NCBI GenBank assembly: GCA_008632985.1
Contig: QPGO01000122.1
Span: 186,001 to 249,225, forward strand
Origin: Psammoneis japonica
Taxonomy: Eukaryota
Length of the DNA stretch: 63,225 nt
Direction of reading: 5' to 3'
Positions 13,112-60,253 of this stretch are shown one piece after another (the stretch's first letter is position 1; the number at the start of each line of letters is the position of its first letter). Position numbers and translations under genes: made by a program. A model generated the notes under the pieces. The model saw only the letters and a list, made by a program, of their open reading frames with translations. It did no database searches and was not told where the DNA came from.

Positions 13112-13515
13112 GGTGAAGAAGCAACCTGCAGCTGCACATCATTGACAAAGCCACCGACACTGATCGGGTGCTTCATCATTCCGCCGCCAACTTTCACCTG
13201 GCGGACAACTTGCGGGAAAACTGGCACACGTTCTCAAACAATGTGCCATTGTGTGATTCCGCCACCGCATCTCGTGTTCGAACCGAGTGCCCTCCTGACC
13301 ACGATCACTTCTCCGAGGAACTCTCCGTTGCCCGTCAGGCTAACTCTCTGTACAAAGGGCACTTCGGGTGCCTTCGTGTGTGCATTCCTGCCCTTCTTCT
13401 GTTTGTTTTGTTGAAGGGAGAGTCCGATTTGACACGTGACGGACCGGTTGCAGTTCAAAACGGCAAAGCACGCAGGACAAAGTTCGGTTGTGCTGGGAGA
13501 GCGTGTCACCCCAAG

Positions 13516-16500
13516 ATGCCTGGTTCTGCCAAACTGGCCAAACCAAAGGCTGCTTGCGGACTTGATGTCTTTGAGCCCGATGACAACTTTGACGCCAACG
13601 AGACCTCCAAAATCAAGGCGATGGCAGCCAACATCCTTGGCTCGATTCAGCTTTGCGAAAATGAGGTAGAGCTGAAAAAACTGAGCAATCCACCGCCATT
13701 TAACTGGTCACTTTGGTGCGAGGAATGCTCGCAAAAGTTGGGCAATGAAATGGGCTGTCTGTTCTTCAAACGTGAGGACGTCACTGTGCAGGGATTGTGC
13801 ATTTCCCGGGGTCAAGACTGTGATGGTCACTGTGACAATAAAAACTGCATCTGGCGTTGATGTGGGAAGACAGCTGCAGGTTGCTTCTTCATTGTGGATG
13901 CCTTTGGTGACATCTGGTCCTTCAAGGTTGTCACCAACAGCAGAAGGACCATTGGTCAACACTGCGACGACCAGTGCGACATGAAGCCCATGCTCACTCG
14001 CATGCACCACAATCGAGCTCAGCTTGATTTTGCACTTAAAGACTTGGACTTGCAGCACGATGGTCCCACCCACCCCGATGTGTGGCTTTCCAGCATTGCA
14101 TTCAAGCATCTTTCCCTTGACGACAACAGGCCGTGGGACAATGTTCTTGTTGGTGGAGGTGGCGACTCTTCACATGTCGAGGTGTGCACGGATCGACTCA
14201 AGTTCCCAACTTTCCCAGTCAGGGACTTCCACTCATCTGCCCCAGTCACAGTGATCTGCCATTTCAAGAACATTGTGTGCCGATCGGGTCCCGACCCAAA
14301 ACGAGTCATTCGTTTGGCGATCCATGCTGGTTGTCCCACCGGATGTCACCGATTTTACTGCGTGGGGGACAAGCATCTTCCTGGCCTTTGTTGCGAAGGT
14401 GCTGACCCGTTTGTCAACTTTGCCGATTGCTTGCAGAACACATTTGGGGTGCCACACGGTGACCCACAGGTGGGTGGGATCAGCCCTGCCAATTTGACGT
14501 ACGAGAAATTTTGCGATGCATTTCTAGACCCTTGTTGCGTCGGAACCGTGAATGACCTGATTGACGCAATGGTGGAAGAAATCTATGCTGCACTTCTCTG
14601 GACAAACAACAATGTCAACACCAACGAGTTCTGTCCCAACTTAATGGAACAACGGTGCAAGGCAGCGTGTGATGCTTGGGCAGACCGGGGAGCAGATTTC
14701 AGTGAGATTTGTCTCATGTTGGTGCTGCAATGTCTGGTGCTGGCAGGTGTCGCAGTGAAAGACCACACAAGACTCAATGACATCATCTGTCCTGTCTTCA
14801 ATTTGGGAGCTGCCGCACAACTGGGGCATGTCCAACCAGAAGAAAGGCCGCTCATGCACCAAAGGATGTCATCCGAAACAGGAACCAAAGAGCATGGTTG
14901 GAACAGAACCGAGCACAAACTTTGTGAGAATTCAGACAATCGCTGCACCTGCATTTTTCACTGTGTTTTCCAAGGACCCTGTTCAGGACAAGACCTGTTT
15001 GCCTTCTCTCCCTCTGGCCAGCGTCTCCGCAAGCCACATGGGTCAACCGAGTGTGAAATTTTGGAGTGTGTTGACGACGACCCCAACCTTTGCCAATCAC
15101 AAGACAATGCTGAATCGCGCACATTTGTGTGTGAATCAGCCATGCAATCCGACGCTGCCAGTGTTTTCTCCATTGTTGATGGACTGCCCGCAGACAATGA
15201 ACTTAGCTCATTGTCATCGGAGGAGTCTAGACTCGCCGCAAACAATGAACTTAGCTCATTGTCTTCAGAGGATTGTCGACTTGACGCGGAGAAAGAACCA
15301 AGTTCATTGGATTTGGAGGAGTCTCGACTCGCTGCAGACAATGAACTCAGCTCATTGTCTTTGGAGGAGTCTGTGTTGTCGGAGGACTGCTCGTGTCCTG
15401 ATTCTGACTGCCGCGTTCCAATTGTCACAGCAGATTCTGTTGTCCTTCAGTCGCAGGATCAAGAATCCGATGAAGATGATGCAAGCAACGCAACCGCGTA
15501 CGATCAACCCGAGCCACCGGTCCTTTCACAAGTGCAAGATTTTGACATGGACAAACATGTGAATGCCATTTTTGCGCAAGTCTGTCAACAGCCGAAGAAC
15601 TCCTGCAATTGTTTGGTGTCATGTTTTTCACAAATCTTAACCCGCAACATGGCTCCTCCTGTGCTTTTGTTTCACATTGTCATGTCATCCCCAGACAAGA
15701 CGGAGGTGCAAATGTCCTGTGGCTTTGCATGACAAGGCCCGTCATGGCCGGAAACCTGACATGGGATGAGACATGTTCGGACCATGGCGTGGAGGCTGTC
15801 CGATCCACTCAGCAAAGAAGAGATGAGGCAAGGTGTCAAGTTGTTCAGGATCTCCACACGAACTCAAATGTTTGTGCATGCACTGTGTCCCCACAGGATG
15901 GCAGCCCCGCTTGTCACTTGAATTGCAACATGTCTGCCAAGAATTTTGCCCAAAGGGTCAAGACGCGGTTTGGAACAGTGATTGATTTTAAGAAAAGTGG
16001 CTTTGTTCAGATCTGCATGGACCACCACTGGATGCAAAAAGGGGAGTGGCTGCAGTCGACACTCGGAAATTGCTTCTTTGGTGAAAACCCAAGGGATGTG
16101 ATGGAAACGTTGTTTCATCCAAAGCTCCAGAGGTGCCGCGTCATAATCCCGTGCACCATTTGGTCACTGACCCAAACCGCGTGCAATTTGGATGACATTT
16201 TGGAGTGTGCACTGGTGCAGGCCATGACACAGGACATGGCATGTGAAATGGTGACGCTCTGCCAGGCTTCCCAGGAGATTGTGGAGGAGTGCCGTGTGGA
16301 TTGGCTGGGAAAACCATCTGACCAGGAAGCATCACATTTGGGAGTCACGGAACAGGAAATTTGGGAAACGCCACCACATGAAGAAGCCAATTCAGTCCTG
16401 GAGTTCCTGCGAGAGTGTGGAAATTACAACCAGAAGGAACCGTTCCCGTTCCTGTCCTTCGAGAGGAGAATTCCCGATTGGAGGGATGAGTTGAGGAAAT

Positions 16501-16604
16501 GGCCCAGGAGTTGTTTGCTGTGCTGGTTCCCAGTCGGATTTGTGAGTGGATTGTCAAAGCAGGTGAGTGAACGTTGTCTCTGTTGTCCTTGTCGTCCCGA
16601 TTAA
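13516..16604 (+). pseudogene. Large uncharacterised transposon-borne gene, full-length arm B copy
   Basis: ATG at 13516 (MPGSAKLAK) in the spacer, one in-frame TGA at 13858, then ORF 13894-15732 and ORF 15609-16604 (intron or frameshift between them). Confidence 0.5.
15193..15372 (+). repeat. 48-bp coding tandem repeat (NELSSLSSEESRLAA), about 4 copies; about 3 copies in arm A at ~11680-11812
   Basis: aatgaacttagctcattgtc recurs with period 48. Arm B has one extra unit, accounting for 612 vs 596 aa. Confidence 0.85.
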
Positions 16605-16640
16605 GTTTTCTGCTGCTGTTGTCGGATGCTCACATGCTTT

Positions 16641-19600
16641 TCACCTGCTTTTGTGAAACAGCTCTCCCCATGCATTTCTGCGGTCTTGAACCACCCAAAC
16701 ATGCTTTGTCCTGTCGTGTGTCTCAGCAATGCCAGGTTGCTCCTCATGCACCAACAATTTGTCGCCAACAGCGTCGATGGGCACCAAGAAAAGCTTGGGT
16801 GAGTGCACTGTTTGTTCAGCAGAGGACAAGTTGTTGTTCTTCACTTGGTCCAATTGCCAGCGACTGACCAGGTCGGTGTGTTGCATTCATTCAACCATGG
16901 TGCGCTTGTCAGGCTGGTGCGTGCAAGGGTGAACGACCGCACACAAGTCACCGTTGCTTTCCCTTTGGAAGAAACAGTGAAGTCTTGACGGGAAGCACAA
17001 TTCCCCCCCAGTTGTGCCAAAGTTGACATTCGCCCAGTCATGAACCGGTCCTTCGCTGTTGCAGTCTGGGTGTGCACGGCAAGTGTCTTTCCTGTTCTTG
17101 TGGCGGAATTCGGTTTTGCAAACAAGGTTGACGGTGAGGTCACCTCCTGCTCCAACGCATTCCCTCCACTTCTTTTGAAAGAAATGGAGCAGGACCGGGT
17201 GAACCTGACATTGTTTTTGCTTTCCATGCCAGAGAAAGCTCACTGCATTGTTTGTCGCACTGCAGGTGATGGCAAAGGTGCTGCCACCCAGTGTGTGACT
17301 GTCATTGCCACGTGCAACATCCTTTCGTCCAACTCTCGATGTGATCCATGGGTTGGCCGACAACGCACGGTGCACCGTCATTTGGTCTTGCATGCGCGAC
17401 GCAACCTGACCCAGGAAGATGTCAAAGCTGCACTGTTGTGCCGTGGCAGATGGCAATTTGAAAAAATCCTCAAGCAAAGATTCTCCAAGACCAGAGTCAA
17501 AGTTCGTGGCATGACACAAACAATGTAGAAAGATTGGAAGGTGAAGAAGCTCGTGAAGTTTCTGCAGCTTCCACCCAGCCCCTTCGTGTCTGGGGGAGCA
17601 ATGTACGACACGAGACACCAGCAACCAAATTTTCTTTGAGATTTTGGTCAGGTCAGTTGTGTCGGTCGGTGGGTTGCCGAGTTGACACCAAGCATGGAAG
17701 GTGAGCAGGTCTTCCAGCAACTGGACGTATTGCCCAACACTGCAACTAAGGGGCTTTCTCTTTTTTTTCCTTTTCCGTTGATTGTGGCTGTTGCCTTCAT
17801 CCTCGGACTCGTCCGGTTGGTGTTCCACATTGTCGTCTGCATCCGTTTCGTGCGGATCATCTGTTCTGTCATTGGAGTGATGATCGTTGCCATTGTCGCA
17901 CTCTTCCGGCATGTGACAGCGATTGATTCAGAACCTGGGTGTCCCACGCCCTGACGGCAATGGGGGATTGTCTTGGTCTTCCTGGAGAAAACAAGATTCG
18001 CAGACATCTCTGCCTTCCTTTGTCAGCAGCAACAAATGAAAAACAAAGGACATCCCCGCCCAATGATGTGAGTTGAGGCAGGTGAGTGATGTGGCCCCAC
18101 CCTTGAAATTGGTTTGTAAGAAAGAGTTGCACATGGGTTGGTGATTGCCAAACATTTTTTCCACCAATCTGTCGACCTCGCTTCTCACTGAGTTTGTCAT
18201 GCTGTCGACAAAAACACCAACCTCCCTTTTTAAAGTTCCGTTTTCAAAAAGGTGCATCATGTTGCTTGCCATGGAAAGGGTTGCTCCGAACGGCTGTTCT
18301 CCGAAATCTGCATTGAGCAAGCTGTTGGTGGGCACATTGTGCTGCTTCATGCAATGAAGCTGCTGCAGCCAGTGGTTCCTTTCTTGCTTGTCAAGACTGA
18401 GATCATTTGCGTGGTTCTGGACCAACAAATTGTCACCAGCCCTGACTGGTTCGCACTCCTTCCAAGGGTCGTCAAGCTCATTGCACCCGGTCATGCAAAA
18501 CCTGGAACAACGTTGGTGACAGTTCTTGGCGCCACACCCACCCACAAGGCAGTCACCACTCTTCGCATCTCCATTGATTGGGGTCATTGTTGGAATGACA
18601 TGAAGGAAACGCATCTCATCACCGCGTTGAACGTGGCAGCAAAAGCCACCGTTTTCCATTGTGTCCAGCAGAGGCTGGAGTGTTGTTGCCAACACCTTGT
18701 GACAATCCCGGATGCTTTGGCCCTTCTCCAACTTTCGAGCGTTAGATTGCTGTTTGGCGGCGGAGGAGGACATTTTTTCTAGGTCGGGAATGCAGCCAAG
18801 GACACGCCACTTCGCTCTGTCATGCCATTGGTTGCAGGCAACATGAGCCGACGCAACTGTGACGGGTTCTCCGCAGGAAGACGACATGGAGGCTGTCTTC
18901 CCAGTCTTGTCAACGTAAACCATCAAACATTCGAGGAACTCTTTAAGAGGATCCAAGACCCTGGCTGCGCACGTGCTTCTGCACCACTCTCCTGCCAAAA
19001 CACACTTGTCGTGCTTTCCCTTTGAGACATGCATTCCGCATGGATCAGCAGTGTCGGCGAGATTGCTGGGGTTGGCCCATGTGCAAGCATCCAGCATGAA
19101 CGATTCCCACACATCTTTGAAATTCCATCGCGGAACTCTTGCTGTTGTCTCACCGCGTTCCCCATTGATGCTTTCTAGGTTGACTGGAATCATCTCGCAC
19201 TCCGGACCTGCAAAAGATTTGTGCAGGTTCTCCATCAGTTTGGTCCGGCGAGGGATTTGCGTTCCAAGATGGAAGGTGCTGCCACAGTGTCTTTTGATGA
19301 ACTTGGCGATCTTGTCGCACAGATGAAGCGGTGCTCTGCAGTCGTCTAAGAGCTTGCACAGCTCCACACAAGCACCGTTGAGGTTGCAAGAGATGGCATG
19401 CGCGCAAATGTGTCTTCGGCTGGGCTGCGGCACACCTCACCCAATCGGCTGTCTTCACTCTGCGAATCATCTTCGTCTGAGCTGTTTGATTTGTCAGGAT
19501 TTGCAACTTCGGAGCCCTCCATTGTGACATCTGGCAGCACGTCAAACAAGTCATCTGGTGACAAGCTGGCTTCAGAAGACAAGTCCAGGGACATGTCATG

Positions 19601-20037
19601 AATTTCCTTGTGATGGGATCGCGACCCAAGAGCGGAAATGTCATCATCAAAGGGTGGTGACCATGGTTCATCGCTTCTGTCATTTTCGTTGTCAGTGGAC
19701 CCAAGCCCAATGTTCGCTGCAGATGCACCTCGTCTGGACCGCCTCAGCCGTGGCTGTGACGAGTCATCTGATGAGGAGGAATGTCGAGATCAACCGACCC
19801 ACATCTGCGAGAGAATTTGTTGCCAATGTTGGAAGTTTTAGCCGCAACCCTTGCTGACAACTCTGGCATTGGGCAGTTTGTGACTGCATCACAACGTGAC
19901 AAGTTGGACATCTCTTGAGCAAACGAAAAACACAGCGGGTCATGATGGAAATGGGTGAGCATCCGTCAGAAGGATCGTTTGCAACGGGGACATGCCACCA
20001 CACCACCCCCACCATGCCAACCACCGTTTCCTTCCAT
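16641..20037 (-). pseudogene. Plavaka-type transposase, disrupted, arm B copy
   Basis: ORFs 17928-19433 (VYVDKTG, VLGCIPDL, NGDAKSGD, MMHLFENG), 16887-17912 (KLHELLH..NFD..GE) and 16641-16886; mirror of 7017-10412. Confidence 0.72.
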
Positions 20038-20352
20038 TTGTTGTTGCAGCAGGTTTGTGGGCTGCCCAAACACATGTGTGTTCGAATGGCAGCACCGGTT
20101 CAGTTCGTGAAAAGTGAAATGGTTCAGGCGGCAAGGAAGGAAAACACGACATGAATTGGCGTGAAAACATGGGTGCATTGTGTTCTTCCCATCAATGAAA
20201 ACATCAACAGGTGAGAATGAATCGAGTGCATTGCAATGATTGACAACTTTGAGCATGAACAACTGATTGCAAAGGTTGTTTTTCTACGGAAAGGAGAAAA
20301 TAAGTTGTGACGTGATGAGCCGTGATGCGCCACAGCAAGAAGTCTGGGAGGG

Positions 20353-21458
20353 GTGCACCCACACCTGCCACAGCACCAGACACAAACGTTGCAATCAACA
20401 ATGAATGCTGTTGTACAAAATGACCGCTCAACGGCACACCAACCAAACAACTGCTGGAGGAGATTTGAAAGTTTGACAATCATGACGGCAGATGGAAGGC
20501 AACAAATCATGGAATCGGAGTGTGAGGCGGCTTTTGATGAATTGGATCGTTTGACACAAAGTTTGCCACAAGGCAGGATGGTGCTTTCTGATGACACGGG
20601 TGTGGCTTTGATTGAGTTTGAGAGAGGCACACATGCGGTCAACCCGTGCCTGCACGTGACGCGATGGACCTGTTTCGTATGATGAATGAGGAAGACATCC
20701 AACAAAGGTGGCGGGAACTGTGGAAGCAGAGGTGCAACCACATGGTTTGGCTGCACGAACATGTGAGTGATTGGAGCACAGAAGTGATTGAGTGCATGCA
20801 TGCCAGCACAGGCATGATCTCAATTCATGATGACCTGAACTGGTTGAATGGCGTCGTCAACCGTGGGATTGATGCTCGCCATCACCAGGAGCATTGGGGC
20901 TGCATCGCGACTCACCAAGACAGGCAAGGAAGGATGTGCTGTGTCTGCAGCACTCTGCACAATGAAGGAGAGAAAGAGCTGAGGGATGAATTTGCAGCGG
21001 GTGCGTGTGACGACACAAAACTGGTCATTGACAGGGGAGACGTTTCGAGATTGAGACAGAATTCGAGCGTCAGCATGCCAACCCATGGCATGGATGAGAC
21101 AGGCACTTGCGGACCATTGGGAGAAACATTGGCGAGGGGAGGCACATGCGGACTTGTGATGGACAAGAAGGGAATTGTTTGCGATGCATTAAAACTGGCA
21201 AAGTGGTTCCAGCATGACATCGTGCGAGACAACCATGAAAAACTTTGGCTCTGTGAGCAAATGGAGTTCTTCAGGTTGTCTCCAGGGACAGTCAATGAAT
21301 GGATGCTGGACATTGTCCGGAAGGAGGATGGTGAGCGGGAGAAATTTCAAAGCAGGAGAAAGGAAAAGCATTGGGTGGAGAGACGTCGTCGCGTTGAAGT
21401 TAACGAATTCATGAGAATGCGTCAAGGCGGAGATGAGGGCTTTCACCCACATGACTGA
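20353..21458 (+). pseudogene. Uncharacterised transposon-borne ORF, arm B copy (frameshifted)
   Basis: ORFs 20353-20682 and 20646-21458 together match 5577-6701. Confidence 0.5.
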
Positions 21459-21959
21459 CTGTTCCGACAGCAGGCGACACATCAAGTTGAGAGTTGTGAA
21501 GTTAGAGGGTGATGACAAATTGGACCAGAGAAAATGATTTGGCGCCAAAAAGGATGGATGTGCTCAGGCCCCAACAGCAAACTGGAATGACGTTAAAGCA
21601 GGTGAGGGGTGTGTTCATTGCAGCAAAAACAACTTTCACAGGTGCACATTTCACAATGATGTTTTGAACAAAGTGCTTTTGCAAGCAATTTACACTGTGG
21701 AAGTGGATTTTGAAATTGCAGCAAAAGAGAGGTTTGAACTGGAATTCGCAATGATTCAAAATTTTCATGAGATTACAAGGAGTGGCAAAATGGTTAAATT
21801 GTGTGTGCATCAAAAGATTTGGTCAATTCTCCATCATGTTGCATTTGAGAAAAAGGAATCATTGTTGGTGACTGCAAGATTTTTGGCATTAAAGAGAGGT
21901 TTGAAAATTTCCCAACGATGAAAATGGCTGGGACACAAGGCATGGAGCCACCCACAATT

Positions 21960-22235
21960 TGTCAGAAATTGAAGGCAAATGGCAAGAATTCAAACAACAA
22001 CTCCTTGCTGCTGTCTAAACAGCAGATGAGTCTCCGCTCAGAGACCGTTGCAGGAGCCGAAAGACGTGTAAGTCGGCACAATCGGGCCACTGTCATCATT
22101 CTTGTGAGCCTTGTGGCTCGAAAGCAAACTGCATCGCGCGTAAACGCGCGGAGCTAAAGCACACAAAACTGTGCACGGCAAACTGAACAGCGCGCGATGC
22201 TTCGCGCGCACCTGAATCCTGTTCAAATCCTGTCA
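21960..22235 (-). repeat. 3' LTR
   Basis: tgtcagaaattgaagg...gttcaaatcctgtca, a direct repeat of 28802-29078. Preceded on the minus strand by the purine-rich aactggggag (22236-22245, PPT). Confidence 0.95.
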
Positions 22236-22239
22236 CTCC

Positions 22240-25200
22240 CCAGTTTGCTTGAGGAGCCACAGAAACAGATTCGACTTCGGATGGAATGAAGTTCCAGAAC
22301 ATGAGGGGGCGGAGAAGGTCCCAGATTTGGGAGTGACCCCAATGCTTGCTGAGAATGTCAGCAGGGTTGCGGGAGCCTTCGATGAAGTGGAGCTCAAGGC
22401 AACCAGAGGCAATTGCCTCACGCACACGGTGGAACGACAGTGCGGTGTGTCGCTTGTGTAACTTGGAGTGCGGGATGGTGGCACTGTCTACAACCGACTT
22501 GTTGTCACCGAACATGTAACCAACGTTGCGGATCGGGACGCCAAGGCAGCGCAGGGTGATGTGCAGGTCGATGATCTGCTCAACACAAGTCCTTGCGGCA
22601 ACAAATTCAGACCCACAGGTCGCAGTCTCCACGGTGGCTTGTTTCTTAGAGAACCAATCAGCCGGGAATTTGTTGAGGAAGTGGAGCATTCCCATGACAG
22701 AGCGTCCGGTGAGCATGCAATGGTGCAAGTTTGCATCGACGTAGTGGGTGGCAGTGACGAACTTGCCAAGGGGCGGTGGAGCATCCTTCGGGATCATCTC
22801 TTCTGCTTCACCATACACGGAATGCATCCATTCACAGGCCGGAGCAGGGAGATCCGAGTGGTCGGGCTCTTCCGTGCGAACGCGGAGAGCACCGTGTCGC
22901 ATCTTGGAGAGGCACCCACAGACGCGTTTGGCACGATCCAAGTGGCCTTGACGGGGCGCAGCTCGGAAGCTAGAGAGTGACATGACGGCCGTGGCAATGT
23001 CAATTCGACCAAGGGACACTGCCCATTGGAGTGAGCCAACAAGAGACTGGAACTTGTGAATGCCATCGGGTCCCAGCAGTTCGGAAGTGTCCAGTTCGGG
23101 GTGGTCACCCTTCTCTAGAGGTGACAGGGCGTTGGTGGCAGGTTTCTCCCCAAACAGTCAGGCACAGCTGTCGACCATGCGCTCGATGTACTTGCGCGGA
23201 GACAGGCACAAGGTTCCGTCGGGTTCCCGGGAAAAGTCGCAACCCAGATGGAACTCAATGGGTCCCGCACCCTTGAGCTTAAACTTGTGCCTTTCCATGA
23301 GAGTGTCGACGAAAGATTGAGGGTCCTTCATGGCAATGGCGAGGTCATCCACATGAACGGCAATGCATTCATGGTGGTCGCCGTTCCTGCGCATCCAAAT
23401 GTCGGGTTCGGCGCGGCAGGGGAAGAAGCCTTCAGCTCGCAGGCAGTCGGCGAAGCGCTCGTGCCAGCGGAGACCGGAGCTGCGCAGTCCATGCAGTGCC
23501 TTGTGGATGACAAGGATGTGTCCTTCGAGTTTGCCGAACTCGGGTCCAGCTACAATGTAAAGCTTCTCCTTGGTGGTGGCTTCAAGGTGGGCATTGCCAA
23601 TGTCGGTGGCCCATGTCTCCAACTCGTTGAGTTCGGCCAGGAAAATCATCAGCCGAAGGCCACGGAGGGAGACCACTCCGGAGCAGACACTGTCGACAGG
23701 TGCGTCCGTGAGGTGCCCGTCGGCTACGAGTCGTGCCTTGTGGCGACCGTCGTGTTTCACGTCGCACACTGGGTGCACTCGGATCTTCTTGTGTCCCGCA
23801 GGAGGAGTGGAAGACTTGAAGGGCCCGCAGTCATGGAAGACTTCACATTCGTCGAGTTGGTCCATCTCGAGATTAGTTGCGTCTCCCCACTTGCGGTTGC
23901 CGTTGCGTTCGTCTAGTGACATGGCGTGTTTGTAGTTCCGGGGAACTTCGTGTCCACACTTGCAGCGAGGTGCAGTGCGGAAGGAGCGAAGCTTGGCTTG
24001 GTTGGCCATGCGAAACAGCTTCTTTTGGCGCCTCGCGATGGTGCGGAACCGCTTCCAGCCATCCGTGTCGAGGAGTCCGTTCTCTCGTGCATAGATGGCA
24101 CAGGTGACGGGGTCGTCCTTGGCGATGATGGCAAGAGGCTCGGACGTGATCTCCCCACTTTCCCATTCAAGCATGATGTTGTAGCTGGAGCCTTTCCAGG
24201 TTGGGTCGTGAGGCTTCAGAGGTCCTTCGTGTGACACGATGCGTCGAAATTTCCAAACAGTGGTGTCTTCGTCTTCTTGCTCAATGTGATTCATGATGTC
24301 ATTGCAGGCAAGGACTTCTTCGTATTCGTCATTGTTGACAGAGCAGACGAACTCAGTGAGCTCGGGATTGCCGTTCACTTTCCATTCGTGGTCTTCGACG
24401 GCCTTGACGATGCGAGCTCTGTGGCGTTGTCCGTCCTCTTGTGGCTGCATGAGGAAGGTACGTCCAATGATGTCTTGCGGATCGAAAACTGGCATCTTGG
24501 GTGTCCTGATCTCCCCATCAGGAGAGTCGACGGGGTTGTCGTCATGGCGAGATTTGATGATGGGTTCAGGTGGCTCCCCATCAGGAGGATCAAGACGCAG
24601 GTTTCGAACGGCAGGATCGGGGGCAGCGGAGCGGACGTTGGACCGGTGGAGGATCTTCTGAGTCTCGTCAGATAGAATCTTGAAGGTCATCTGGTGGCCG
24701 ACGTGCTCAGCAATGCCAACAAAGCGTCCACGCAACTCACGGGATTCGGACGGCCAATCGGAGTCATCGAGGTGGAAGCACACGGGTTCCCACCAGTGAA
24801 AGCGAAGCAATGGGCTGATGTCCGGGGTGGAGCCAGTGAGAGTCTCGAGGGGCGTGCGCCAGTGGAGACGTGGGGACGCTGCATGGTTGAGTGTGAAGCA
24901 CACGTACATGAGCACCAGCAGCCATGTGTGGGCGGGCGAACCAAAACGATCCATGACAGTGTTCGCCATGCGCTTCACGGTCTGGTGTCGACGCTCGGCA
25001 AAGTTTTGGTGTTGCTGGTGAGGCTCACTTTGCCAGCTAGAGATGAAGAGGGCGCGTGGGATCCCGAGCACTTTGTTGCTGATCTCAACTTGAGCACGGT
25101 CGCTAATGAGTTTGGATGGGGCACCACGTTCACGGATCTGATCCTCGAGTGTGTTGACAAACTCTTTGTCCGTCTCAGTGCCGCAGACGTCAGTGACGGT

Positions 25201-27852
25201 AGACTCGGTGCCAACAAACAGTTGGGCGCTGGTGCAACCAGAGTCGACGGCCGGGGTGTCGGCACAAACGGTGTCAGTGGCGACAGGCTCGTTGCGGCGG
25301 TGCACATTAAGGGCGGGGTTGGGTGATTTGTAGGCCTTGCGAAGGTGTGTACCGGCGGGCATGCGGGCGCACTGCGTGGTGCAGTCAAAAGTACGACGGA
25401 CCGTGTCGGCAGGTAGGAAGCCAAAGCAAGGTCGAAGAGACTCGAAGGGGGGGTCCTTGGGCTGTACAGTGCGCTCCGGAGGTGGAACGTCATCGCCCTG
25501 GGGGCCAATCGCATGCAGATGACACTCGTAGAACACGTCGTCGTTCGGAATGAGGTGATCATCGAGGGCGGACGCGTGATCGGCAGACAAGGAAGCGGAC
25601 ATGATGGTCTCGTTGACAACGACACGATGACGGCAGTTGCCGCATTCGTCAAATGGGTTGGCAGTGGGATCGTCCTGCAGGTCAGAGATCGCGTCGTGCC
25701 ACTGGTCGTCGTCAGTGACAGAGTGATCGAGGACGGAAGGGTCCCATGTGTCATCACCGGTGAGGATGACATGGGGCAGGGTGTCCCATTCGGCGTCAGT
25801 GTAAGGTCGCATGGCAACATGAGGCAGGCCAGCCTTGATGTCAATGGGGATGACACAGCCATCAGGAGTGGCAATGCGTTGCAAGCCGTTGGGCACCTTG
25901 ACAGAGCGATCGTTGACATCCTGTTTGTACCACTCGAGCTGGCCACAGGAATGGATGGTCTTGCCCTTGCCCGTGTGTGCGCACTGATGGAGGATGGCGA
26001 TGACGGGACCACGCTGGGTCTCAACAACGGCGCCAGCGGTGACAATGGGGATGTCCACCAATTGATGATCGTCAATGCCCTGAACGTCGACTTGGCGAGA
26101 GGTGCGTGCAATGACGCGAACATCGTCGCCAGCAATGCCGCCGTTGGCCCCACGATCGACCAGAGCGCCAGTGCGTGTGGAGCGATGAGCAGAGGCAGAG
26201 CAAATGACATTGTGGTTGTTGACGCGGCGGCAAGTGCGGCCGTTAAGTTCCATGTCATCTGCAGAAGCCGGCGGGGTAGAGGAAGCAGCAGATGGCCCCG
26301 GTCGACTGGCATTGGGGGCTTGGTCAGGAGACAACAGGCGTTGCAGATCACCGGGTGGCAGTGGCTTGCGCTTGGTGAGGTGCGCCAGGATGGGATTATC
26401 CGAAGTGGCGTCCACATGTGGAGCGGAGTCACCAGAGTCAGCAGGAGTCGTGTTGGACAAGTTGACATCACCATCACTCCCAAGGCGTTGGTCGTGAAGG
26501 TTGGCCGTAACAGACTCATGGCAGTTGCTGGCTCGCGGGTTGCGGGGAGGTGGACGAGAATGCTCAAGGATGATCGCCTTGGAGGAATCGGGCAACGAAT
26601 CCCAGAGCCGTTGGTGGTCGGGAGGGAGACGTCTCCATTGGACACCAGGGAGGCTGGGACCGCGGGTGTGGGCAGCATTGGCTTGAAGGACGTCAACGTC
26701 GCTGTCAATGTCGTAGAACGCATCGTCGGACGGTTCCTCGGAGCAGACGTCATGTGCGTGCATGGCGCGTCGGGGAGCTCGAGGTGTCGTTTTGGGTTGA
26801 AACGTGCTGTCGCACTGAGCTGCCGCGGAGAGGAGCAAGCCACAGTGTTGGTCGTATGTGAGGCTCTTGCCACTCTGCGTACGATGCTGATCAGCTTGGT
26901 TCTTGACAGCACGGAGTTCCTCGACAGGGTGCACGGCATTCTCGAGCATGACGCGCTTCTGTCCTTCAGAGAAGTGGTCACTGGCCGGGATGAGTGCCTC
27001 GCACTTGCGCAACTGATCTTGCCAATGAAGGATGAACCCGTGGGTCGGACCTTTCCAAGTGCCATCACCAAGACGCGCGGTGGTGAGGTGCGTGAGCAGG
27101 GTGGAGGACTCGACAGATGCGCGGGTGGAGGCAAGCGTGCACTCAGACAAGGAGCGGCAGACGGTCTGTGCGTCAGAGGACCCCACATTTTCGCGAATGA
27201 GAGCCTTGCCCTTGTCGGTGAGAAGGATGCGTTCGAAGACGGCGAACATGTGCTTTTGCTGTTCAGCAAAGAGCAGTTTGTCTTCGGGGCTGGTCGGTTT
27301 GTATGACGAGTCTAGAATGCACTCGACGTCTTGGGCACGGGCTTGTGCCACAAGTGAGGTGTGCCAAGTGTGCCACTGCTTGTCGGATTTGAGAGCCATG
27401 AAAGCGGTGGGATCACGCTTGATGCCTCGCTTGAAGTCCCGCACCGGGTCGCGTGCCTTGGTCGGGTTGGTGACATGTGGAGGTGCAAGGGGTGAGCTGC
27501 CGATGGACACAGAAGACATGCAGTCGGGGCTGAGGCGGCAGGCAAGGAACTCGTCATGCGTGAACAAAGAGGAGTCGTTGGCAACGTCAAGACCTTTGTG
27601 TGCTTTGACAATGTACAGACTGACCAGTGCTGCTAACATGTTCTTATAACCACGGGGCAAAGGGATTACATTAGTGCCGTTGTCGCACTCAAGCGAGTCG
27701 ATTTGGGACGGCATGAACGTGAACAGTTCCTGATGCGAGTCCGTGCCGTCTTGGGCCAAAGCCAAACGAAGAGGACTCCCAGCACCTTGGGCAAGCACGG
27801 TTCCAACCACGTGCTCGAAACCATCGGTTTGTTGCTGACGAGTGAGAACCAT
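22240..27852 (-). pseudogene. Copia gag-pol polyprotein with one in-frame TGA (23158-23160) and mutated catalytic motifs; 3' end approximate
   Basis: ATG at 27852 (MVLTRQQQ). Protease LVDRGANGG; integrase ATDT..ISDRA..NFAERR; RT KARLVADGH, DIGNAHL, KALHGL, HVDD; RNase H YVDAN, GSEFVAA, GDNKSV, NPADILSK. ORF 22096-23019 is in the same frame as 23158-27888. Confidence 0.92.
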
Positions 27853-28801
27853 GGCAGACAAAAGTGGTGTCAGGGATGGGACAATCAATTCTGGTTGGGA
27901 AGCGAAGGTAGACTCGAAACTTGGGTGAGAATGGACTTGACTTGAAATGGACTTGACTTGAAATCTTGAACTGTCTTAAAATCAGAAGTCGCCGGGCTTT
28001 GTCATGCCGTTCGTTGTCAAGTGCTGAACTTCCTGTCCGGTCCGTAGAGTTGTGCCGGCACGTCCGAACCCGCAGCCAGTGGCGCTTTGGGTTGCTTGTG
28101 AGCGGAGCAGCGGGTTGTAAACCCCTGCAGGTGAGCTGACTAGAGGTGGACAAGACCCCCAAACCATTCTTGTTTTACATCGGTTGGATTTCCCGATCAG
28201 GCTGGCCAGTTGACGTAGGCGTCAGGTGCTGTGGACAAACAAACAAACGCGGGAAAGCACCCTCGCCCCAACGTAGGCTGTAATCACGGCCACCTGCTCT
28301 CACAGTCGTCCTCGTGGACCTAGTGGAACTGCAGAGCACCAGTGGTCCGGGGTGGATCAGGTGCAATGGACTCGGTGTGCTTGTAGAGTGGCAGCAAAAC
28401 GGCAGTCCGAAGAGTGGATAAAGGTTCTTGGCCGTGAAGACATGTGTGTGTGCACACACATGTCTTCAGCGACTAAGATCCTTGAATGTGTAGGGTTCTT
28501 GACCGTCAACCGAGGAACAGGCATGTCAAGGGATGTTGATCAAGGACAGACTTGGATGTGACCGTTGAACACAAGTCTTCAGCGATCAAAGGTGGTGCAA
28601 TCAATCCAGATGTCCAGCGGCAAGGAGACTTGACGGTGACGTTAACTTCCTGCCGATGCCCTGGTTTTGAATGCGCGTAGACTTGCCGATGCATGTAGAA
28701 CACACACGGAGGTCCACGCAGAATTGAAATGGCGTTGTTGGTAAATCAACGACGACGATGGCGGTTGCTCAATGGGTTGACAATGAGCAAGACTGTCAAT
28801 C

Positions 28802-29078
28802 TGTCAGAAATTGAAGGCAAATGGCAAGAATTCAAACAACAACTCCTTGCTGCTGTCTAAATGGCAGATGAGTCTCCGCTCAGAGACCGTCACAGGAGCC
28901 GAAAGACGTGCAAGTCGGCACAATCGGGCTGCTGTTGTTATTCTTGTGAGCCTTGTGGCTCGAAAGCAAACTACATCGCGCGTAAAACGCGCGGAACTAA
29001 AGCACACAAAACTGTGCACGGTAAACTAAACAGCGCGCGATGCTTCGCGCGCACCTAAATCCTGTTCAAATCCTGTCA
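28802..29078 (-). repeat. 5' LTR
   Basis: 277-bp copy of 21960-22235. Confidence 0.95.
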
Positions 29079-29090
29079 CAATTGGCGACA

Positions 29091-30309
29091 ATGGTGAGGA
29101 AGAAGAAGAAAGAAACTGCGGGGGTGGCTGGAGATCAACCAACAAGCCCAAGGCCAGCCGCAGCGTTGGTGCGGGTGGGAGCCACTGGGGATCACCAGTC
29201 TGTGGAGAGGCAGAAGAGGTGGCGCGGAAGGAACTTTTCCCAAAGGCAAAATTCCTTGTCAAGGCGGACATGGCAAGCAGTGGCAAAGTGTCGCGGCTCA
29301 TCAGGAAAAAGACAGCCGGAGGAAATTGCAGCAAGCGAGACTGGGCGGGAGCATGGGAAGACTGGGCAAAGAAGTGCGTCATGCATGCAATTAACGCAAA
29401 AAGGAGCACGGTCACTCAGGCGATCAAGAACAATGCAACGGCTGGCAAGTGTTTTGTGGTGCATGGCATGTTGAGTGCAGTTGCACTTGACACAGCTGCA
29501 CCTTCATTTGTTGAAGTCGTGTTGACAGAGAATGAAGCAGAGGAGATGCACAGTCAGAAGCCGGCAGCAAAGGGTGGAGGTGGGAAGAAGAGCAAGAAGA
29601 GGAAGAAGAATGATCGCATGGAAGAGGAAGAGCCATTCCTGGCGACTTGGGGGGAGGAGACTGTGACAACGATTGTGGAGGACAAGCGCAAGAACAAGGA
29701 AGCACATGCTTGGTTCTACGAAAACATCCTGAAATTCACAAAGAGCACCGCCACATGGAGAAGGAAGGCAGAGTCGGGTGAGACAAAGGCAACCGGTCTG
29801 GCTACAGTGAGCAACGAGGCTCCAGTGCTGTTGACATTGGAAAACTGCTGGAAGAGTTGGGAGCACAAGGCACGTCATGACAAGACTGTTGCAGCAGGGG
29901 GGGTTCGGACGAAGAAGATGAGGAAGAGTCGGAACCAACACCCAAGTGCACGGACCCGTTGAGGCAATGAGACTCGTGGAAAGATGCAGGGATCAAGCGA
30001 TTCAACAAACTGCTTGCGGCAGCAAAGAAAGACAGGTTGAGTGAAGAGGGCATGCAGTTCGACACATGGTGCAGCAAAGGCAAGAAAAGGAAGAGTGACG
30101 AAAGAGGCAAGGGATCAAAAAGAAAGAAAAAGCAGGTGGAGGAGGCAAGAACACAGGCAACGACAGAGCTTTCAAGTGATGACAAGGAGAAGGAGGAAGA
30201 GGTGACGGACGAGAACAGAGGAGACAAGGACAGTGACGAAGGGGAGGAGGACAGTGATGCGGAAAGTGATGCGAGTGCAGATGCAGATGGTGAGCGAGCT
30301 GCGGCATGA
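29091..30309 (+). pseudogene. Transposon accessory gene, arm B copy; the copia inserted about 12 bp upstream of its ATG
   Basis: MVRKKKKETAG.., RKELFPKAKFL.., SNEAPVLLTLENCWKSW.., acidic tail; mirror of 3862-5086. Confidence 0.6.
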
Positions 30310-32399
30310 AAAGGCAGCGGAGGCTTTTGTCAGTGTGACAATGGAAAGAGGACAAGCAATGTAGCAGGTTTCAATGTTGACAGTCACAAGGTTTGACAAA
30401 GTGTCAAAGGGATCATTGTTTTATGATCTAACCTTTCGTTTGACAACCAGTGCATGCAACAGAACCAGTGCATGCAACAGAAGGTTCTCTTGACCAATGT
30501 GACGCAATGATTGGCATTAATTTGTTGTCAACCAAAACGTTGTGAACATTGCTTTCAAAAGGTAAAAAGTGACGGAATTCTGACAGTCAAGGGAGGGGTC
30601 CCACAGGCAAAGGAGGGGTCCCATGGTGAAAAATGTAACACTGTGACACATGACAAGAAATCACGTTCTACACAACTCACTCAACATGAAACTGTTGCAT
30701 TTACACCTGCAATGGCATTAAAAATTGCCCACAAGAAGGGTGGTCAGGATCACTGTGTTTTGCGCTCTGATGGGGGGGGCAAAAAAAAAGGGTGCAAGCA
30801 AGCTTTTGTTTTGGTGCCAAAGCAAGTCTCACATTGTTGTGTGTCACATCATCATTTGTTGCTCACTGAATTCTCTGCAACACCTGCCCTTTCCTCCAAG
30901 TGCACCTCAAGTGACCACAGCCTGGCCAGCAAGCTTTGCAACATGCTTTTTGCCACACTTCTCACTGCCACACAAAGATGTGTGGCATCTTTTTTCTCAA
31001 GGTGGCACAGCTGATGCCTGGCATCTTCAACAGCACCCAACCTTCATTCTTGTGCCATGGCCAAGTGTCTTTGTCACATTCTTGTCCTCATGCACAATGT
31101 CTTCTTTCCACACAGGGCTCTTTTTCCCTTTCTTTGGCTGGCGGGTCTTTCTGTGCACGTGCGAGGTTGTTTTTGCAGAAATGGCACTCTCCACAACTGC
31201 AAGCAGGTGTGTTTGCCTTCTGTCAGACCCACCTTGGCTTTGTCACAGGGCCACTTGTGTCCACCCAAAATCTGTGACAGTGCCCATTCCAAGATTGTCC
31301 ATCATCCATTTGAACTTCCATCATGTTGGCTTGGTGAATTTGCAAAAGGGGTGCTCCACTTTTGTGGCTTTTTTGTTGCAATTTTCATCACATGAGTCAC
31401 CCCCCAGTCACTCTGTCTGGGCTGCAACAGCACATGATGCACAGGTGGCATCAATTTTCCTTCAAGGCAATTGACCAGTCAGCAGTCTCCCTGCTGTCTT
31501 CTCTGTCAACTGCAAGCATAAACTTGGCACAGTCAGGAATGACAGCATGTGGGGGAGACAGAAACTTGGCTGTGCTCATTGTTGTCCCATCTTGTGGTTG
31601 TCCAGCAAAAACCGAGCATGTTTTCTGTCTTTCCAAGTTGTTGCCCCCACATGACAAACCCAGCTGCACCACTCCTGTTTCCTTTCACACCCTTCTGAGC
31701 CCAGCACAACTGCCCATGAGGCATCTTTGACAAAGCCTCTGCCAACAGTTTGTGGGAGAGGAGAAGTCACTGGCTGCCTTGGAGACTTTTTTCAACTTCT
31801 TCACAGTGTTGTGTGCCAGTTTCATGAGCTCTTCAGATCAAAGAAAATGGTCACTTGATGTTTGTACCCTTCGCCTGACAAGAGGACCCAGCTTGGGATC
31901 CACAGCCAATGACCTTGGAACAACTTGAGAGGGGAGGTGTCATCATGGTCTTTGCCAGGGCGTTCTCATTGTGTGCAGAGACACCCAGTTTCTGTGCAAC
32001 ACAAGGCCCGCACTTTCATGCCATGTTTGATTGTTTTGGCTCCAGGCATGCACTGAGCAAACTTTGCCATGCTTCCATCTGCAACATGTTTCCATGCTCA
32101 ACCAGAAGACCACTGATCAATGATCAACATGTTCACAATTGTGCTGATTGTTTTCACAACTGCCAAATTTACTTCAGCGCCAATTTTGTCTCATGATGGT
32201 TTTAACTCACAAACAATTGAAGGTGTTTTGCTCATTGAAAGTCACCTGTGTGGCTTGTTTTAACCACATTTTAAACTTGTTAAGAACAGCTGCATTTGTT
32301 CTCTTTTCCTTCCATTTCTCAGCTTGCTGCCTTTGTGGTTTGCTCTGTTTCTGCTGCACATTTGTCCTTTTTTCCCACTGGACACTGCTGCAACATCTG

Positions 32400-33540
32400 C
32401 CAACAACAATGGCACACCCCTGCCACAATCCACTCTGTCCTGGTTGGACACAATGTCTGACAACAATGACAAGCAAGCTCTCCACCAACCTTTTCAAAGG
32501 CATCCCCAGTGTTCTTCCATTTTGGCCTGAGCAATGCACCTCCCTCCCCTGACCACTCCCTGAGCAACAAATGCCACCTCATGCTCTTTTGATGCATCAG
32601 GATCTCTCAGTCATTCCTTCAACTCAAGCACCAATGGATTCATGTTCCTGTCCCTTCTTGATGGTGATCCATCACACTCATCTGGGGCGTTCTGCAATCC
32701 CCAGGTTGTCCAGTCTTGTCAGTGGTCACATGAGGAGAAGTGCTGTCCCAAAATGCTGAATGAGTGCGTTTGTGGCTCTCTTGACACCAGAGATTGGTGA
32801 GAGCAAGCAAGCTGAGAATCAAATGTTCTCTGGCTGAGCTGGGCAATGATGTTCCTTCCAGGTCACACTTTGTTTGTCCTGTTGTGTGTTGTTTGACAAT
32901 TTCACTCTCTGTGACAACACAGGTCATCTCCAAGCACAACCCATTCTTGTGACATTGGGCAATTTGAGTGACAAGGGTTGCCACAGCCACTCCCTTTGGT
33001 CAACACTGGGGATGACTCCACCACACCTGAAGACCAGCAATGACAAAACCACAGACCGGTGGTCAAAGCTGAGACAGGAGACATGCACTGAGTTCTGCCA
33101 CAGCACCTTGCAGGAGATGTTTGTTGAGTTGCTTCACCTTTTGAAGCACAAGACTGGTTTTCCCATTGTTGTTCCATCTCTTGGGTTTGTCCATGTTCAA
33201 TCTCAATTGTGCATGACAATCGGCAATGTGAAAGGTCATGACAACATGGCTTGTCACTGTGACTCCCATTCTGGCAACATGTCTCAGATGAATCAGGGCT
33301 GCAACACACCAGAGTGCTTTTGTGATGATTCAATGTTTGGCTGCAATTTGGCAGGCTGCCACAATCACTGTCAAGGAAAGGCACAATGGCAATGTGACCA
33401 CAGCTCATGAATGGTGCAAGGACATTTCACAGAACTTGGCTTGTCCTGTTTTTTGGGATGTCCCTCATGGCAGAGAAACAAGGCAGCAACTGCCCTTCCA
33501 TCACATTTGAGAAATGTTTCAGAGTTGCCACACAAATGCC
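32400..33540 (+). pseudogene. Heavily decayed Plavaka-type transposase of a second family; extent approximate
   Basis: ORF 32874-33410 reads TLCDNTGHLQAQPILVTLGNL...WSTLGMTP...EFCHSTL...IGNVKGHDNMAC, the same motif order as the arm transposases (D.T..G...P...TLGN; W..LG..P; GD..G.D). Confidence 0.6.
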
Positions 33541-33876
33541 CAGAAGGCAAAGTGATCAGAAGATGCCAACAAGAACTCCATTTAAGAACAAAGTTGCCAA
33601 CCCAACTGATCTGTCTGGTCTCAAGAGCATCTTGGTCTGTTGCTTGAAACAGTTGCTGCAATGAAATGCGTGCTTTTAAAGGAAGATGAAAGCCAGGAGC
33701 CACTGAAGAGTCCAGAAGGCAAAGTGATCAGAAGATGCCAAGAACTCCATTTAAGAGCAAAGTCACTGACCAGACTCATCTGCCTGGCCAAGAGCATCCC
33801 AGTCTGTTGCTTGCAACACTGCTGCAATGAAAGGCATGCTTTCAAAGGAAGATGAAAGCCTGGAGCCACTGGAGAG
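33540..33876. repeat. ~172-bp direct tandem duplication
   Basis: ccagaaggcaaagtgatcagaagatgccaa starts at 33540 and 33712; both units end in gatgaaagcc.ggagccactg. Confidence 0.85.
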
Positions 33877-35735
33877 GAGTCACTTCATCCACCTGATGTT
33901 CGTGTTTTTGGGATTGGATGTGGCGCTGTCCCTCTCCTCACACAAGGCTTCAGAAATGCATTCTCAAGCATCTCAAATTGTTCCAAAAATCTGGGTGAGT
34001 GTCCAGTGCTCAGCATGCACACATCAAACACTCAACAATTGCCAGTGAGGAGATTTGCTGCAGGCATGTTTGCTCTCCTGTGAAAAGTGAACCCACTTTG
34101 AATGTCCAACATCACCACACCACAGTTTTGTGCTTTTCACAACATTGTTGCCCAACCAGGGCTCACTTGTCACTTTGCTGGTCACTGCATTTGGCAAACA
34201 TTTCATCCTCAAACTCTGAATCCTCTGAAACAAACAACTCTGACTCACATTCCCAGTGGATCTCATCATCCAACCCAACACAATGCATGCCAAAGTGTTT
34301 TTCCTGGTGATTCTTGTCCTTCTGCCATGTTCTTGTTTTGACAGCCTGCATTTCTTGCACGCAACCAAGATCAAATGAAGTGGAGGGGGAGAGGGTTTCA
34401 TGTTTTGTGCCTGCCTTTTGCATCTGTCCACACACCTCCCTCCTCAAAAAGAGTGCTGGTTTGGGCATCTCTGATGAGTGGTGCTCACATGTCACTTGCA
34501 AAACTTCAGATGGGAGTGCAGGGACAATGTGCCTTGAGCTTGGTGCGCCAGCAGGACAAAGATTTCTGGATTGAAACAATCATGCAACACACATGGCTGT
34601 TCCACTTCCACTGCCACATTGAAGTTGATTGTTTGGAGTTGTTCTGCATCACATCTGGTCAAGTCACCATTGTCAGGCAGCCAGCACACCACTCTCTGTG
34701 TGCTTTTCAACCACTTTCAGATTGCCCACATGAGCAAACATTGGAAGGTGTTGTCTGATGGGAAGTGCAAAAAAAAAAGAGCTTCCTGACCCCTCTTCAT
34801 CTCAGAGGAATGAACGCAAGCCCCAACAATGTTGCCAAAATCATTTGCCTGCACACTCATGCCTCATCCACTCACTCACACTTCTGAATGAACTGAAAGT
34901 CTTGTGCACACATGTCCATGTCTGACAAAAAAAATGCAACTGCACTTCTGTCTCTGTCTGTCAGAGCCATCTTGTCATGAAAAGCATCAACAAGAAATGT
35001 TGTCACATCATGGCACTTGCCAACAGGCACATGTTTGGTCTTGCCAATCCCCAAACTCACCACATGGATTGCAGACACACCTCTGTTGCCACCGCTGCTG
35101 TTGCTGCATCAACCAGGTGCAGAAGCTAAAAAGTGAGCATGAGACCCGCAACTCATGATCATCCACTGCAACATTGTCTGTCCTGCAAAAACCACCTCAC
35201 ACCCTGATGTTGCAGCAACAGGGTCATGCCTGGAACAAGGACAAATCAATGCACTGCAAATCACGCATGGTCCCTTTCAAGTCCTGAGGATGTGGAGCAT
35301 CCCAAGCAAACATTGAGCCCAGCTCTGGATGACCAAAATGCTCAGTCATTTGTGCCACTGCAAACAGCAGCAAGCCAGCAAGAAGAAAACTGGTGCACTG
35401 GCAACCCAGCCTTCATGACTGTCCACAGCAATGCACGCACACTCCTCAAGTGTCACTCTTGTCCCCTCCTTCTATGACCAGCACATGCAGTTTTGTGTCT
35501 CTCACCCTCTCCAGGAATTCTTTGTGATGGCACACAGGGAGAGTGCAACAAAACAATTTCTTCCATGTGTTGCTGACCCACGAGACCTGAAACAAGCGCG
35601 CCCTGCAACAAACGCACAGAACATCAGAGCCGCAACAACCTTTTTGCACACACTTGCAGAGCTGCACCACGCTGTGGATTTTCTCTCTTGGTTTCATGTC
35701 TTGCCTGAAAGCAAGCCACTGAGAGCCAAGGAAGA

Positions 35736-36332
35736 GTGGCTGCACAGTTTGGGGGAAGTCTCCAGCCAGCTGCTGGCTGAAAAATGTCTGCTCGTCAGTG
35801 CGTTTGGGGGTTTTGCCATCAGAATTTTTACGTGCGCAAAAGACAACGAGTCTGTACAGCGTTCACCAAAACCCCCTAACGCACAGATTGACAGACTCTT
35901 TCAGCACAAATTCTGCACAAGATTCTTCAGCCAGCTAGCAGCTTTCAAAAGTCTGCCCGACGTAGACGCCCGTAGACTTGCACTGGTTTTTCATCAAAAG
36001 TCTGCCCGTTCGGAACGTAGCTTCTACACGATTTTTGTACTAGTGTATCTCATGAACCGTGGGCTTTTCTACGTGATTTTTTGTGTAGAATTCGTACGAC
36101 GGAAATCAAACCGAACATCTCACGAGCCAGCGTTCTTTTTGGGATTTGTTGCGTACACAGTGTACCAGATTCTCGTATGTAGATAGAAAGGTAGAAAAGA
36201 CAAACAAGCATGCTGGGAACTTTAGTGAAATTCTACGTAATCGGGCAGACTTTTGTCGCGGGCAGACTTTTGGGAGCTGCCAGCCAGCAGCTGGCTGGAG
36301 ACTTCCCCCAAGTTGTGGCACTGTGCAGCCAC
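35736..36332. repeat. Nested inverted-repeat structure around a TA/CG-retaining island
   Basis: Perfect 30-bp IR at 35750-35779 and 36281-36310; aaaagtctgcccg x2 facing cgggcagactttt x2; inner ~18-bp IR at ~35799-35816 and ~35867-35884. Confidence 0.8.

Positions 36333-58590: not shown

Positions 58591-60253
<1,663 letters not shown>

Follow-up and report, generated by a model that had tools for sequence, protein, structure and literature searches.

In a 63,225-nt stretch of contig QPGO01000122.1 (hereafter the window, with positions counted from its first letter), a minus-strand long terminal repeat (LTR) retrotransposon of Ty1/copia type carries the footprint of what is probably TpA-specific hypermutation, acting at the DNA level after integration and of the same kind as in Bigelowiella natans; we put the probability of this reading at roughly 0.8. 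Under it, a DNA-level process would have turned most TpA dinucleotides of the integrated element into CpA or TpG. The change would be an A:T>G:C transition at the A of TpA on either strand, leaving almost all other positions, including CpG, unchanged, and the process would target repeat and transposon domains while sparing gene islands, at a speed several hundred times that of background substitution.

Differences between the two LTRs

The element has paired LTRs with TG..CA ends, a 5-bp target-site duplication (TSD) of CAATT and an RVT_2 domain, the features by which a Ty1/copia element is recognised. Its LTRs form a direct repeat pair with 94-96% identity and a spacing of 6842-6843 nt. We aligned them with MAFFT and classified the differences automatically. 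The results showed 12 differing sites, comprising six of TA versus CA/TG, four adjacent CA versus TG doubles, a one-base indel and one A/G outside TA, exactly the number and classes that the first-pass annotation of this DNA had reported from alignment by hand. TA-type sites thus made up 10 of the 11 substituted LTR sites. Transitions between TA and CA/TG represent 20-22% of those possible in the LTRs, yet they accounted for 6 of the 7 single substitutions (binomial P = 5e-4), and by strand the single differences divided 3:3 into T>C and A>G. The pair shared 20 CpG dinucleotides and none differed, as the annotation had also noted.

If TA was ancestral at the four CA versus TG sites, each requires one transition per LTR. 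Alternatively, each of them would once have been a CpG that decayed on one strand in one LTR and on the other strand in its partner; such decay, common in the older repeat arms described below (98 events in arm 1), likewise ends in CA/TG. However, four double decays are very unlikely when not one single decay is found among at least 20 LTR CpGs, which makes an ancestral CG at these sites unlikely. The TA counts (two shared by strict count, with a third adjoining the indel; six single; four opposite doubles) fit a per-LTR TA loss of about 0.6-0.7, and we consider a CpG origin of the four sites highly improbable. By the same arithmetic about four hidden same-state doubles are implied, and the estimate agrees with the loss of 32 of 41 tyrosine codons in the polyprotein. 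Altogether, 15 LTR positions of 276 were substituted, compared with a single one outside TA, so that LTR dating here would overestimate the age of the element about 15-fold, in line with the overestimate that had been predicted.

The variable sites were unevenly distributed between the LTRs. The 3' LTR was in the mutated state at 9 of the 10 variable TA-type sites. The 5' LTR was mutated at five of the 10, all within its inner ~130 nt, and its outer part retained TA (post hoc P = 0.008). TA was also better retained at 27,460-29,078 (7-11 per 500 nt) than elsewhere (2-8 per 500 nt). The contrast between inner and outer LTR, together with this retention, weakly hints that TA loss acts in patches. 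A 26-nt LTR probe had no match in viral_contigs and none in metagenome_contigs. A table of other letters in the reads was compiled from four sequencing runs (X1-X4, all of whose contigs derive from one sample and study), and among the places listed no row fell within either LTR.

Direction of the change

We aligned the polyprotein with 40 of 76 relatives of at least 1750 aa and defined as a Tyr column any column with at least 70% Tyr (TAY). The 44 Tyr columns were occupied in this copy by Cys (TGY) at 20, His (CAY) at 12, Tyr at nine and Phe at three, whereas the residue was kept at 753 of 824 other conserved columns (91%). Tyr made up 0.97% of the polyprotein compared with a mean of 3.83% in the 76 full-length relatives, and none of the best 120 of 1361 relatives fell below 3.03%. 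Cys was 2.8-fold enriched over the relatives (2.60% versus 0.93%) and His 1.4-fold (4.95% versus 3.46%). Tyr loss with gain of Cys and His serves as a simple screen for the process.

TA versus CA/TG differences taken alone are symmetric in direction, and they could equally arise by C>T change at CpA, as in repeat-induced point mutation (RIP), with CA/TG becoming TA. This reverse polarity is already contradicted. In the affected domains TA is nearly absent (observed-to-expected ratio, o/e, 0.05-0.23) and CA/TG is in excess (1.3-1.9); conserved Tyr codons were lost rather than gained; and each CA versus TG site would need two steps. Low TA with excess CA/TG is the end state of TA loss and not of a RIP-like gain, and we give the reverse polarity practically no credence. 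The direction from TA to CA/TG proposed by the first-pass annotation is thus upheld.

The changes were almost exclusively A:T>G:C, being of TA type at the 10 LTR sites and Tyr>Cys or Tyr>His at 32 of the 44 columns. Both strands were hit, as had been claimed: besides the 3:3 division in the LTRs, Tyr>His (12) and Tyr>Cys (20) occurred together in one copy. Since editing of the sense RNA is expected to leave only A>G, the presence of both T>C and A>G on the same strand of one copy argues against it. Sites of the type ATAN/NTAT were saturated, and surviving TAs were mostly TTAA and CTAA/TTAG; the strands are confounded in this comparison and we claim no motif.

The element had also been described as otherwise young. 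The single non-TA substitution in the LTRs and a conservation outside Tyr columns equal to that of intact relatives support this part of the claim. The open frame does not, because TA loss destroys TAA and TAG and cannot create them, so that a killed element keeps a long open frame. An open frame in a TA-poor region thus indicates neither an intact gene nor youth. Over the six phases of 21500-29500, 29 stop-free frames of 100 aa or more overlap with the element, as the erasure of TAA and TAG explains; among them are frames of 629 aa and 778 aa that are antisense to the polyprotein or in another phase. Gene finders would over-call in such regions, where open reading frames (ORFs) are not evidence of intact genes.

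A single insertion in an inverted duplication

The element interrupts one arm of an inverted duplication with arms of ~9.7 kb, a spacer of ~740 nt and 91-96% identity, and the other arm holds an empty site. In the self-comparison, 15242-21959 matched 11811-5094 (94.8%), 13871-15324 matched 13134-11681 (96.5%) and 29077-30772 matched 5100-3398 (90.7%). In the other arm the sequences that flank the element adjoin each other: this arm reads ...CCACCCACAATT and then directly continues into the right-flank sequence, with one CAATT. The junction at a single CAATT identifies this as the empty site, and the LTRs therefore stem from one integration event and diverged in place. The claim that mutation followed insertion is thereby confirmed by one TSD and an empty paralogous site. 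A dated insertion with its empty site proves independently, by evolutionary evidence, that the process follows integration, acts at the DNA level and affects both strands.

These observations bear on an origin before integration, through ADAR-like A>I editing of the transcript, reverse-transcription error or editing of the cDNA. ADAR favours a 5' U, according to the B. natans preprint (10.64898/2026.01.13.699255), and retroelements are known targets of editing enzymes (PMC4866542). However, the LTRs are copied from one template and alike at the start, yet 10 TA sites now distinguish them; A>G and T>C both lie on the sense strand of one copy; the flanks and the palindrome arms, which are not retrotransposed, show the same changes; and the matching TSD and empty site argue against LTRs from different elements. 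We therefore judge a pre-integration origin to have only a few chances in a hundred, in line with the first-pass annotation, which had excluded RNA editing and reverse-transcription error.

Differences were counted for arms 1 to 3. Arm 1 contained 52 CA/TG doubles, 14 TA singles, 98 CpG-type differences, 28 other transitions and 38 transversions; arm 2 contained 21 doubles and 17 TA singles, and arm 3 contained 11 doubles and two TA singles, giving 84 doubles and 33 TA singles in the pooled arms. CpG<->TpG/CpA was the largest class of differences between these older arms. By simple arithmetic, ~6 CA/TG doubles are expected in arm 1 if CpG decays homogeneously (205 shared, 98 single), compared with the 52 seen, so most of the arm doubles would derive from TA near saturation. 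The earlier statement that CpG is untouched accordingly holds for the LTR pair (0 of 20) and fails for older repeats, as the CpG-type events of arm 1 and a CG o/e of 0.17-0.20 at 30-39 kb show.

Arm sequence was multi-copy in run X1, with a summed depth of ~900-2500 compared with ~60 for one contig at 30743-31000. Two palindrome-arm frames had no relative in viral_contigs. Among the 64 non-copia frames from TA-poor domains (12 of 18 in one frame set and 52 of 53 in another, the rest lying in the gene islands 1-3000, 39501-50000 and 58001-60500), no Pfam match was found save one SAP domain. A viral origin of the arms was considered and rejected, as the two arm frames lack a viral_contigs relative and the frames of the TA-poor domains lack Pfam support.

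Regional pattern across the window

TA o/e was profiled in 3-kb bins, and domain edges were placed by TA counts per 500 nt. The results revealed a TA o/e of 0.46-0.60 in gene islands at 1-3 kb and 39-51 kb, compared with 0.05-0.23 in repeats. The edges were sharp: TA rose from 0-2 per 500 nt at 37,001-39,500 to 21 at 39,501-40,000, and at 58 kb it climbed from 2 to 17. Another TA-normal stretch, at ~58-60.5 kb (TA o/e 0.37 in the 57-60 kb bin), contains a bromodomain ORF. By this contrast and these edges, the depletion is confined to foreign or putatively silent regions and host genes are spared. Stop-free frames in the TA-poor domains contained 0-0.6% Tyr and 4-6.6% Cys.

The domain at 30001-39500 looks like an older one in which TpA loss and CpG decay are both near complete, and it includes degenerate tandem repeats near 33540-33876. 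Further degenerate tandem repeats, with a ~220-nt period and 84-88% identity, lie at 56319-56936 within the second TA-poor domain. The long stop-free frame of that domain (51138-55109, minus) carries a SAP domain (E = 1e-5), and a language model places Plavaka/Transposase_21 clusters among the look-alikes of this frame (scores 0.86-0.93), which is no more than a lead; it may represent a hypermutated DNA transposon.

Metagenome relatives and control repeat pairs

We profiled TA at 76 metagenome loci encoding relatives of the polyprotein and tested 11 of the 76 at the Tyr columns. Most loci had a TA o/e of 0.5-1.0, and three stood low: L058 (0.13), L055 (0.27) and L001 (0.31). Tyr was kept at only 2 of 17, 1 of 19 and 13 of 28 Tyr columns of these three, respectively, the remainder being mainly Cys or His, whereas the eight control loci retained 19-48 Tyr and had no more than one His. 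The L058 and L055 sequences, which share 94.5% identity, derive from different assemblies; 25 TA singles and 16 CA/TG doubles made up 41 of the 70 events between them. Judged by the sequences of this pair, the TA-loss process is visible in environmental data. In a quick tree of reverse-transcriptase segments, the element of the window grouped with L055 and L058 (SH-aLRT 96) and L001 fell elsewhere, a grouping that parallel Tyr>Cys/His changes could produce.

For comparison, we examined LTR-like pairs in the 29 loci that were 5.5 kb or longer. In 17 of them a direct repeat was spaced as LTRs are; six pairs were identical, eight had at least 94% identity with differences, and three more diverged pairs were dropped. 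TA-type events made up 5 of 53 in the eight differing control pairs compared with 10 of 12 in the window LTRs (Fisher P = 9e-7), and 66 of 502 with the three diverged pairs added; these controls are imperfect, as many of the terminal repeats stand at contig ends and may be assembly overlaps.

Mechanism, objections and remaining alternatives

The most likely mechanism would be enzymatic deamination of adenine in TpA context to hypoxanthine, which is read as G. Such deamination might be directed at silenced foreign or repeated DNA, as a RIP-like defence of opposite polarity. In its strongest form, this proposal would be a programmed defence existing outside B. natans, in which a TpA-specific DNA adenine deaminase acts on new retrotransposons and repeats, erases ~70% of TpA within ~0.2% background divergence in a patchy manner, and leaves stop-free 'zombie' frames. 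We offer this stronger form tentatively, and hold it to be somewhat less probable than its negation.

Several points weigh against the favoured explanation. The variable LTR sites were polarised indirectly, through Tyr codons, composition and parsimony. The ratio of TA loss to background, ~10^2-10^3 over the long term, agrees with the first-pass claim of a TA rate far above background but rests on one background substitution and gives an order of magnitude only. About 37 TAs common to the copies survive, mainly as TTAA and CTAA/TTAG, and a simple one-rate model misfits. No strand-coordinated tracts were detected among the CA/TG doubles (runs test P = 0.28, 0.54 and 0.73). The evidence here is evolutionary, and an enzyme, a base modification or a de novo event was not observed. 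Finally, the only runs that contain the stretch have no platform on record and may be the assembly's own source.

A passive decay would dispense with a dedicated enzyme. A mutagenic modification of T or A at TpA in heterochromatin, such as an oxidised thymine (5-hydroxymethyluracil or 5-formyluracil) or a modified adenine, would mispair at replication, as 5-methylcytosine does at CpG. 5-Formyluracil is mutagenic, regional TA depletion coincides in places (30-39 kb) with the CpG depletion typical of methylated DNA, and the failure to find strand-coordinated tracts is in keeping with this view. It implies, however, a rate hundreds of times background and more than 10 times the CpG rate in the same arms, and the authors of the B. 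natans study interpret the process as regulated, since no more than 11 of their 15 lines showed it. Passive decay is accordingly an unlikely alternative, with perhaps a one-in-five claim.

A sequencing or assembly artefact would arise if a modified base at TpA were miscalled, with CA or TG appearing at random by strand. The excess of CA/TG doubles over TA singles in the arms (52 versus 14 in arm 1) is what random strand-dependent miscalling predicts, and the missing platform record of runs X1-X4 counts on the same side. Against this, an identical signature is present in three contigs from other metagenome assemblies, and the process was seen in Illumina data of another organism, B. natans. In addition, X1 contigs carry 58% of the sampled 31-mers of 20000-29999 and one is identical over 258 TA-poor nt, although X1 may itself be the source. 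Such an artefact seems to us very improbable, about on a par with an origin of the four double sites in old CpGs.

Comparison with known systems and significance

TpA-directed A:T>G:C hypermutation of integrated DNA has been described once before, in a 2026 preprint on one alga and its integrated DNA of nucleocytoplasmic large DNA viruses (NCLDV) and virophages (Mettrop et al., bioRxiv 10.64898/2026.01.13.699255). There, 231 of 302 nuclear single-nucleotide mutations in B. natans mutation-accumulation lines fell in two integrated viral regions, and 230 of these 231, called from Illumina data, were A>G or T>C changes, every one of them at a TpA. The rate was ~6e-7 per site per generation compared with a background of 3.5e-10 (~1000x), and 11 of 15 lines were affected. 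The genome contains 124 TpA-poor, CpA+TpG-rich clusters, and its TpA-poor genes are enriched in reverse-transcriptase and DDE domains. As the agent the authors put forward a DNA adenine deaminase of ADAT2 type, which is unproven, and they liken the process to RIP. Our literature search found no other natural case of TpA>CpA/TpG.

In tRNA, the A34 edited by TadA/ADAT enzymes follows U33, which is conserved, so that an enzyme of this type acting on DNA would naturally prefer TpA.

The window shares with the B. natans process changes of TpA to CpA/TpG only, on both strands, in particular foreign or silent regions and at a rate orders of magnitude above background, as well as the resulting TpA-poor, CpA+TpG-rich clusters. 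It differs in target, with integrated viral DNA there and a copia LTR retrotransposon and multi-copy repeats here, and in evidence, with de novo mutations there and an LTR pair, paralogous arms and lost Tyr codons here. Depletion is far deeper here (TA o/e 0.05-0.2) than in the B. natans NCLDV region (0.45), and CpG decay accompanies TA loss in the older repeats, unlike in B. natans. The words LTR, retrotransposon and copia are absent from the preprint text. The window looks like a further case of the just-described TpA process, affecting an LTR retrotransposon together with the repeats around it, and probably in an organism other than B. natans.

RIP of ascomycete fungi likewise hypermutates repeats and transposons by transitions; it hits both strands, prefers certain dinucleotides, kills elements and leaves a regional dinucleotide skew. 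RIP consists of C:G>T:A changes mostly at CpA and yields TpA-rich, AT-rich DNA (PMC2621366), whereas here A:T>G:C changes at TpA give TpA-free, GC-richer DNA with open frames kept. The TpA excess and CpA/TpG deficit characteristic of RIP are the reverse of the ratios found in the affected domains. Decay of 5-methylcytosine at CpG also converts a self-complementary dinucleotide to CA/TG on either strand, and opposite hits give CA versus TG doubles; the target here is TpA, however, and the CpGs of the LTR pair are unchanged. In arm 1 both processes run, with TA nearer saturation. APOBEC and ADAR footprints resemble the present one as deaminase-type transition clusters in retrotransposons, and ADAR prefers a 5' U, but these enzymes edit a single strand (cDNA or RNA) prior to integration, whereas the changes here are post-integration, on both strands and also in flanks that were not retrotransposed.

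The window also shows that this process can all but eliminate TpA from repeat domains. If the host is other than B. natans, the process is not a peculiarity of that species, and the metagenome contigs point the same way. If the programmed-defence proposal were true, the copia signature in several metagenomes would suggest that such a defence is widespread among uncultured protists. For base-editing work, too, a naturally occurring DNA adenine editor specific to TpA would be of interest.

Features of the window and minor observations

Table 1. Coordinates of the features in the window, with strand and basis.
Feature	Position	Strand	Basis
Left arm of inverted duplication, TA o/e 0.06-0.19	3398..13134		self-BLAST, difference spectrum, profile
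Empty insertion site, single CAATT, in paralogous inverted arm	5094..5098	-	self-BLAST, sequence
Right arm of inverted duplication, interrupted by element at 21960-29078	13871..30772		self-BLAST, difference spectrum
Target-site duplication CAATT, left copy	21955..21959		sequence; identical 5 bases after right LTR
3' LTR of minus-strand element, 276 nt, TG..CA ends	21960..22235	-	repeat comparison, alignment
Polyprotein frame, 1960 codons, one internal TGA at 23158-23160	22096..27975	-	ORF listing, composition, alignment
Candidate polypurine tract, GGGGAG on minus strand, abutting 3' LTR	22236..22241	-	read from sequence; inferred
RVT_2 (copia-type reverse transcriptase) domain	23170..23802	-	Pfam PF07727, E=3.9e-25, residues 1392-1602 of 1605-aa frame
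5' LTR of element, 277 nt, TG..CA ends	28802..29078	-	repeat comparison, alignment
Target-site duplication CAATT, right copy	29079..29083		sequence
Repeat domain, TA o/e 0.05-0.11, CG 0.17-0.20, CA/TG 1.66-1.93	30001..39500		dinucleotide profile
Gene island, TA o/e 0.46-0.60, CG 0.9-1.1; bestrophin, alpha/beta hydrolase, PARG, adenosine deaminase, GH99-like and ricin-B ORFs	39501..50000		Pfam, profile
Second TA-depleted domain, with 1324-aa stop-free frame (51138-55109, minus), 0.2% Tyr	50001..58000		profile, frame composition

The polyprotein had 1361 relatives at E<=0.001, the best of them 60-71% identical and mostly from metagenome assemblies, and PF07727 was present in all of the best 120 listed. 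A Pfam scan of the polyprotein at E<=0.001 returned no rve (integrase), gag or protease domain, and the listed relatives likewise carried PF07727 only. Rfam and tRNA scans of the window gave no hits, and no RNA data set was listed as containing the stretch. The element was far deeper than its flanks in run X1 (summed word depth 67,000-155,000 versus 860-2,500), and the places of change in the read comparison were mostly transitions (455 versus 52).

An intact adenosine deaminase gene (45616-46653, plus; PF00962, E = 6e-60) lies in the TA-normal gene island. Members of family PF00962 act on free nucleosides and nucleotides, and the nearness of this gene to an A>G signature is therefore probably a coincidence. 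In the collection searched, the best protein identity was at most 64% for the adenosine deaminase ORF and at most 72% for the alpha/beta hydrolase ORF of the same island (41494-42795, plus). These values weakly suggest that the host differs from the sequenced B. natans strain. The nearest named relatives of the hydrolase are bacterial (Planctomycetota and others, 50-55% identity), and it may be a transferred gene.

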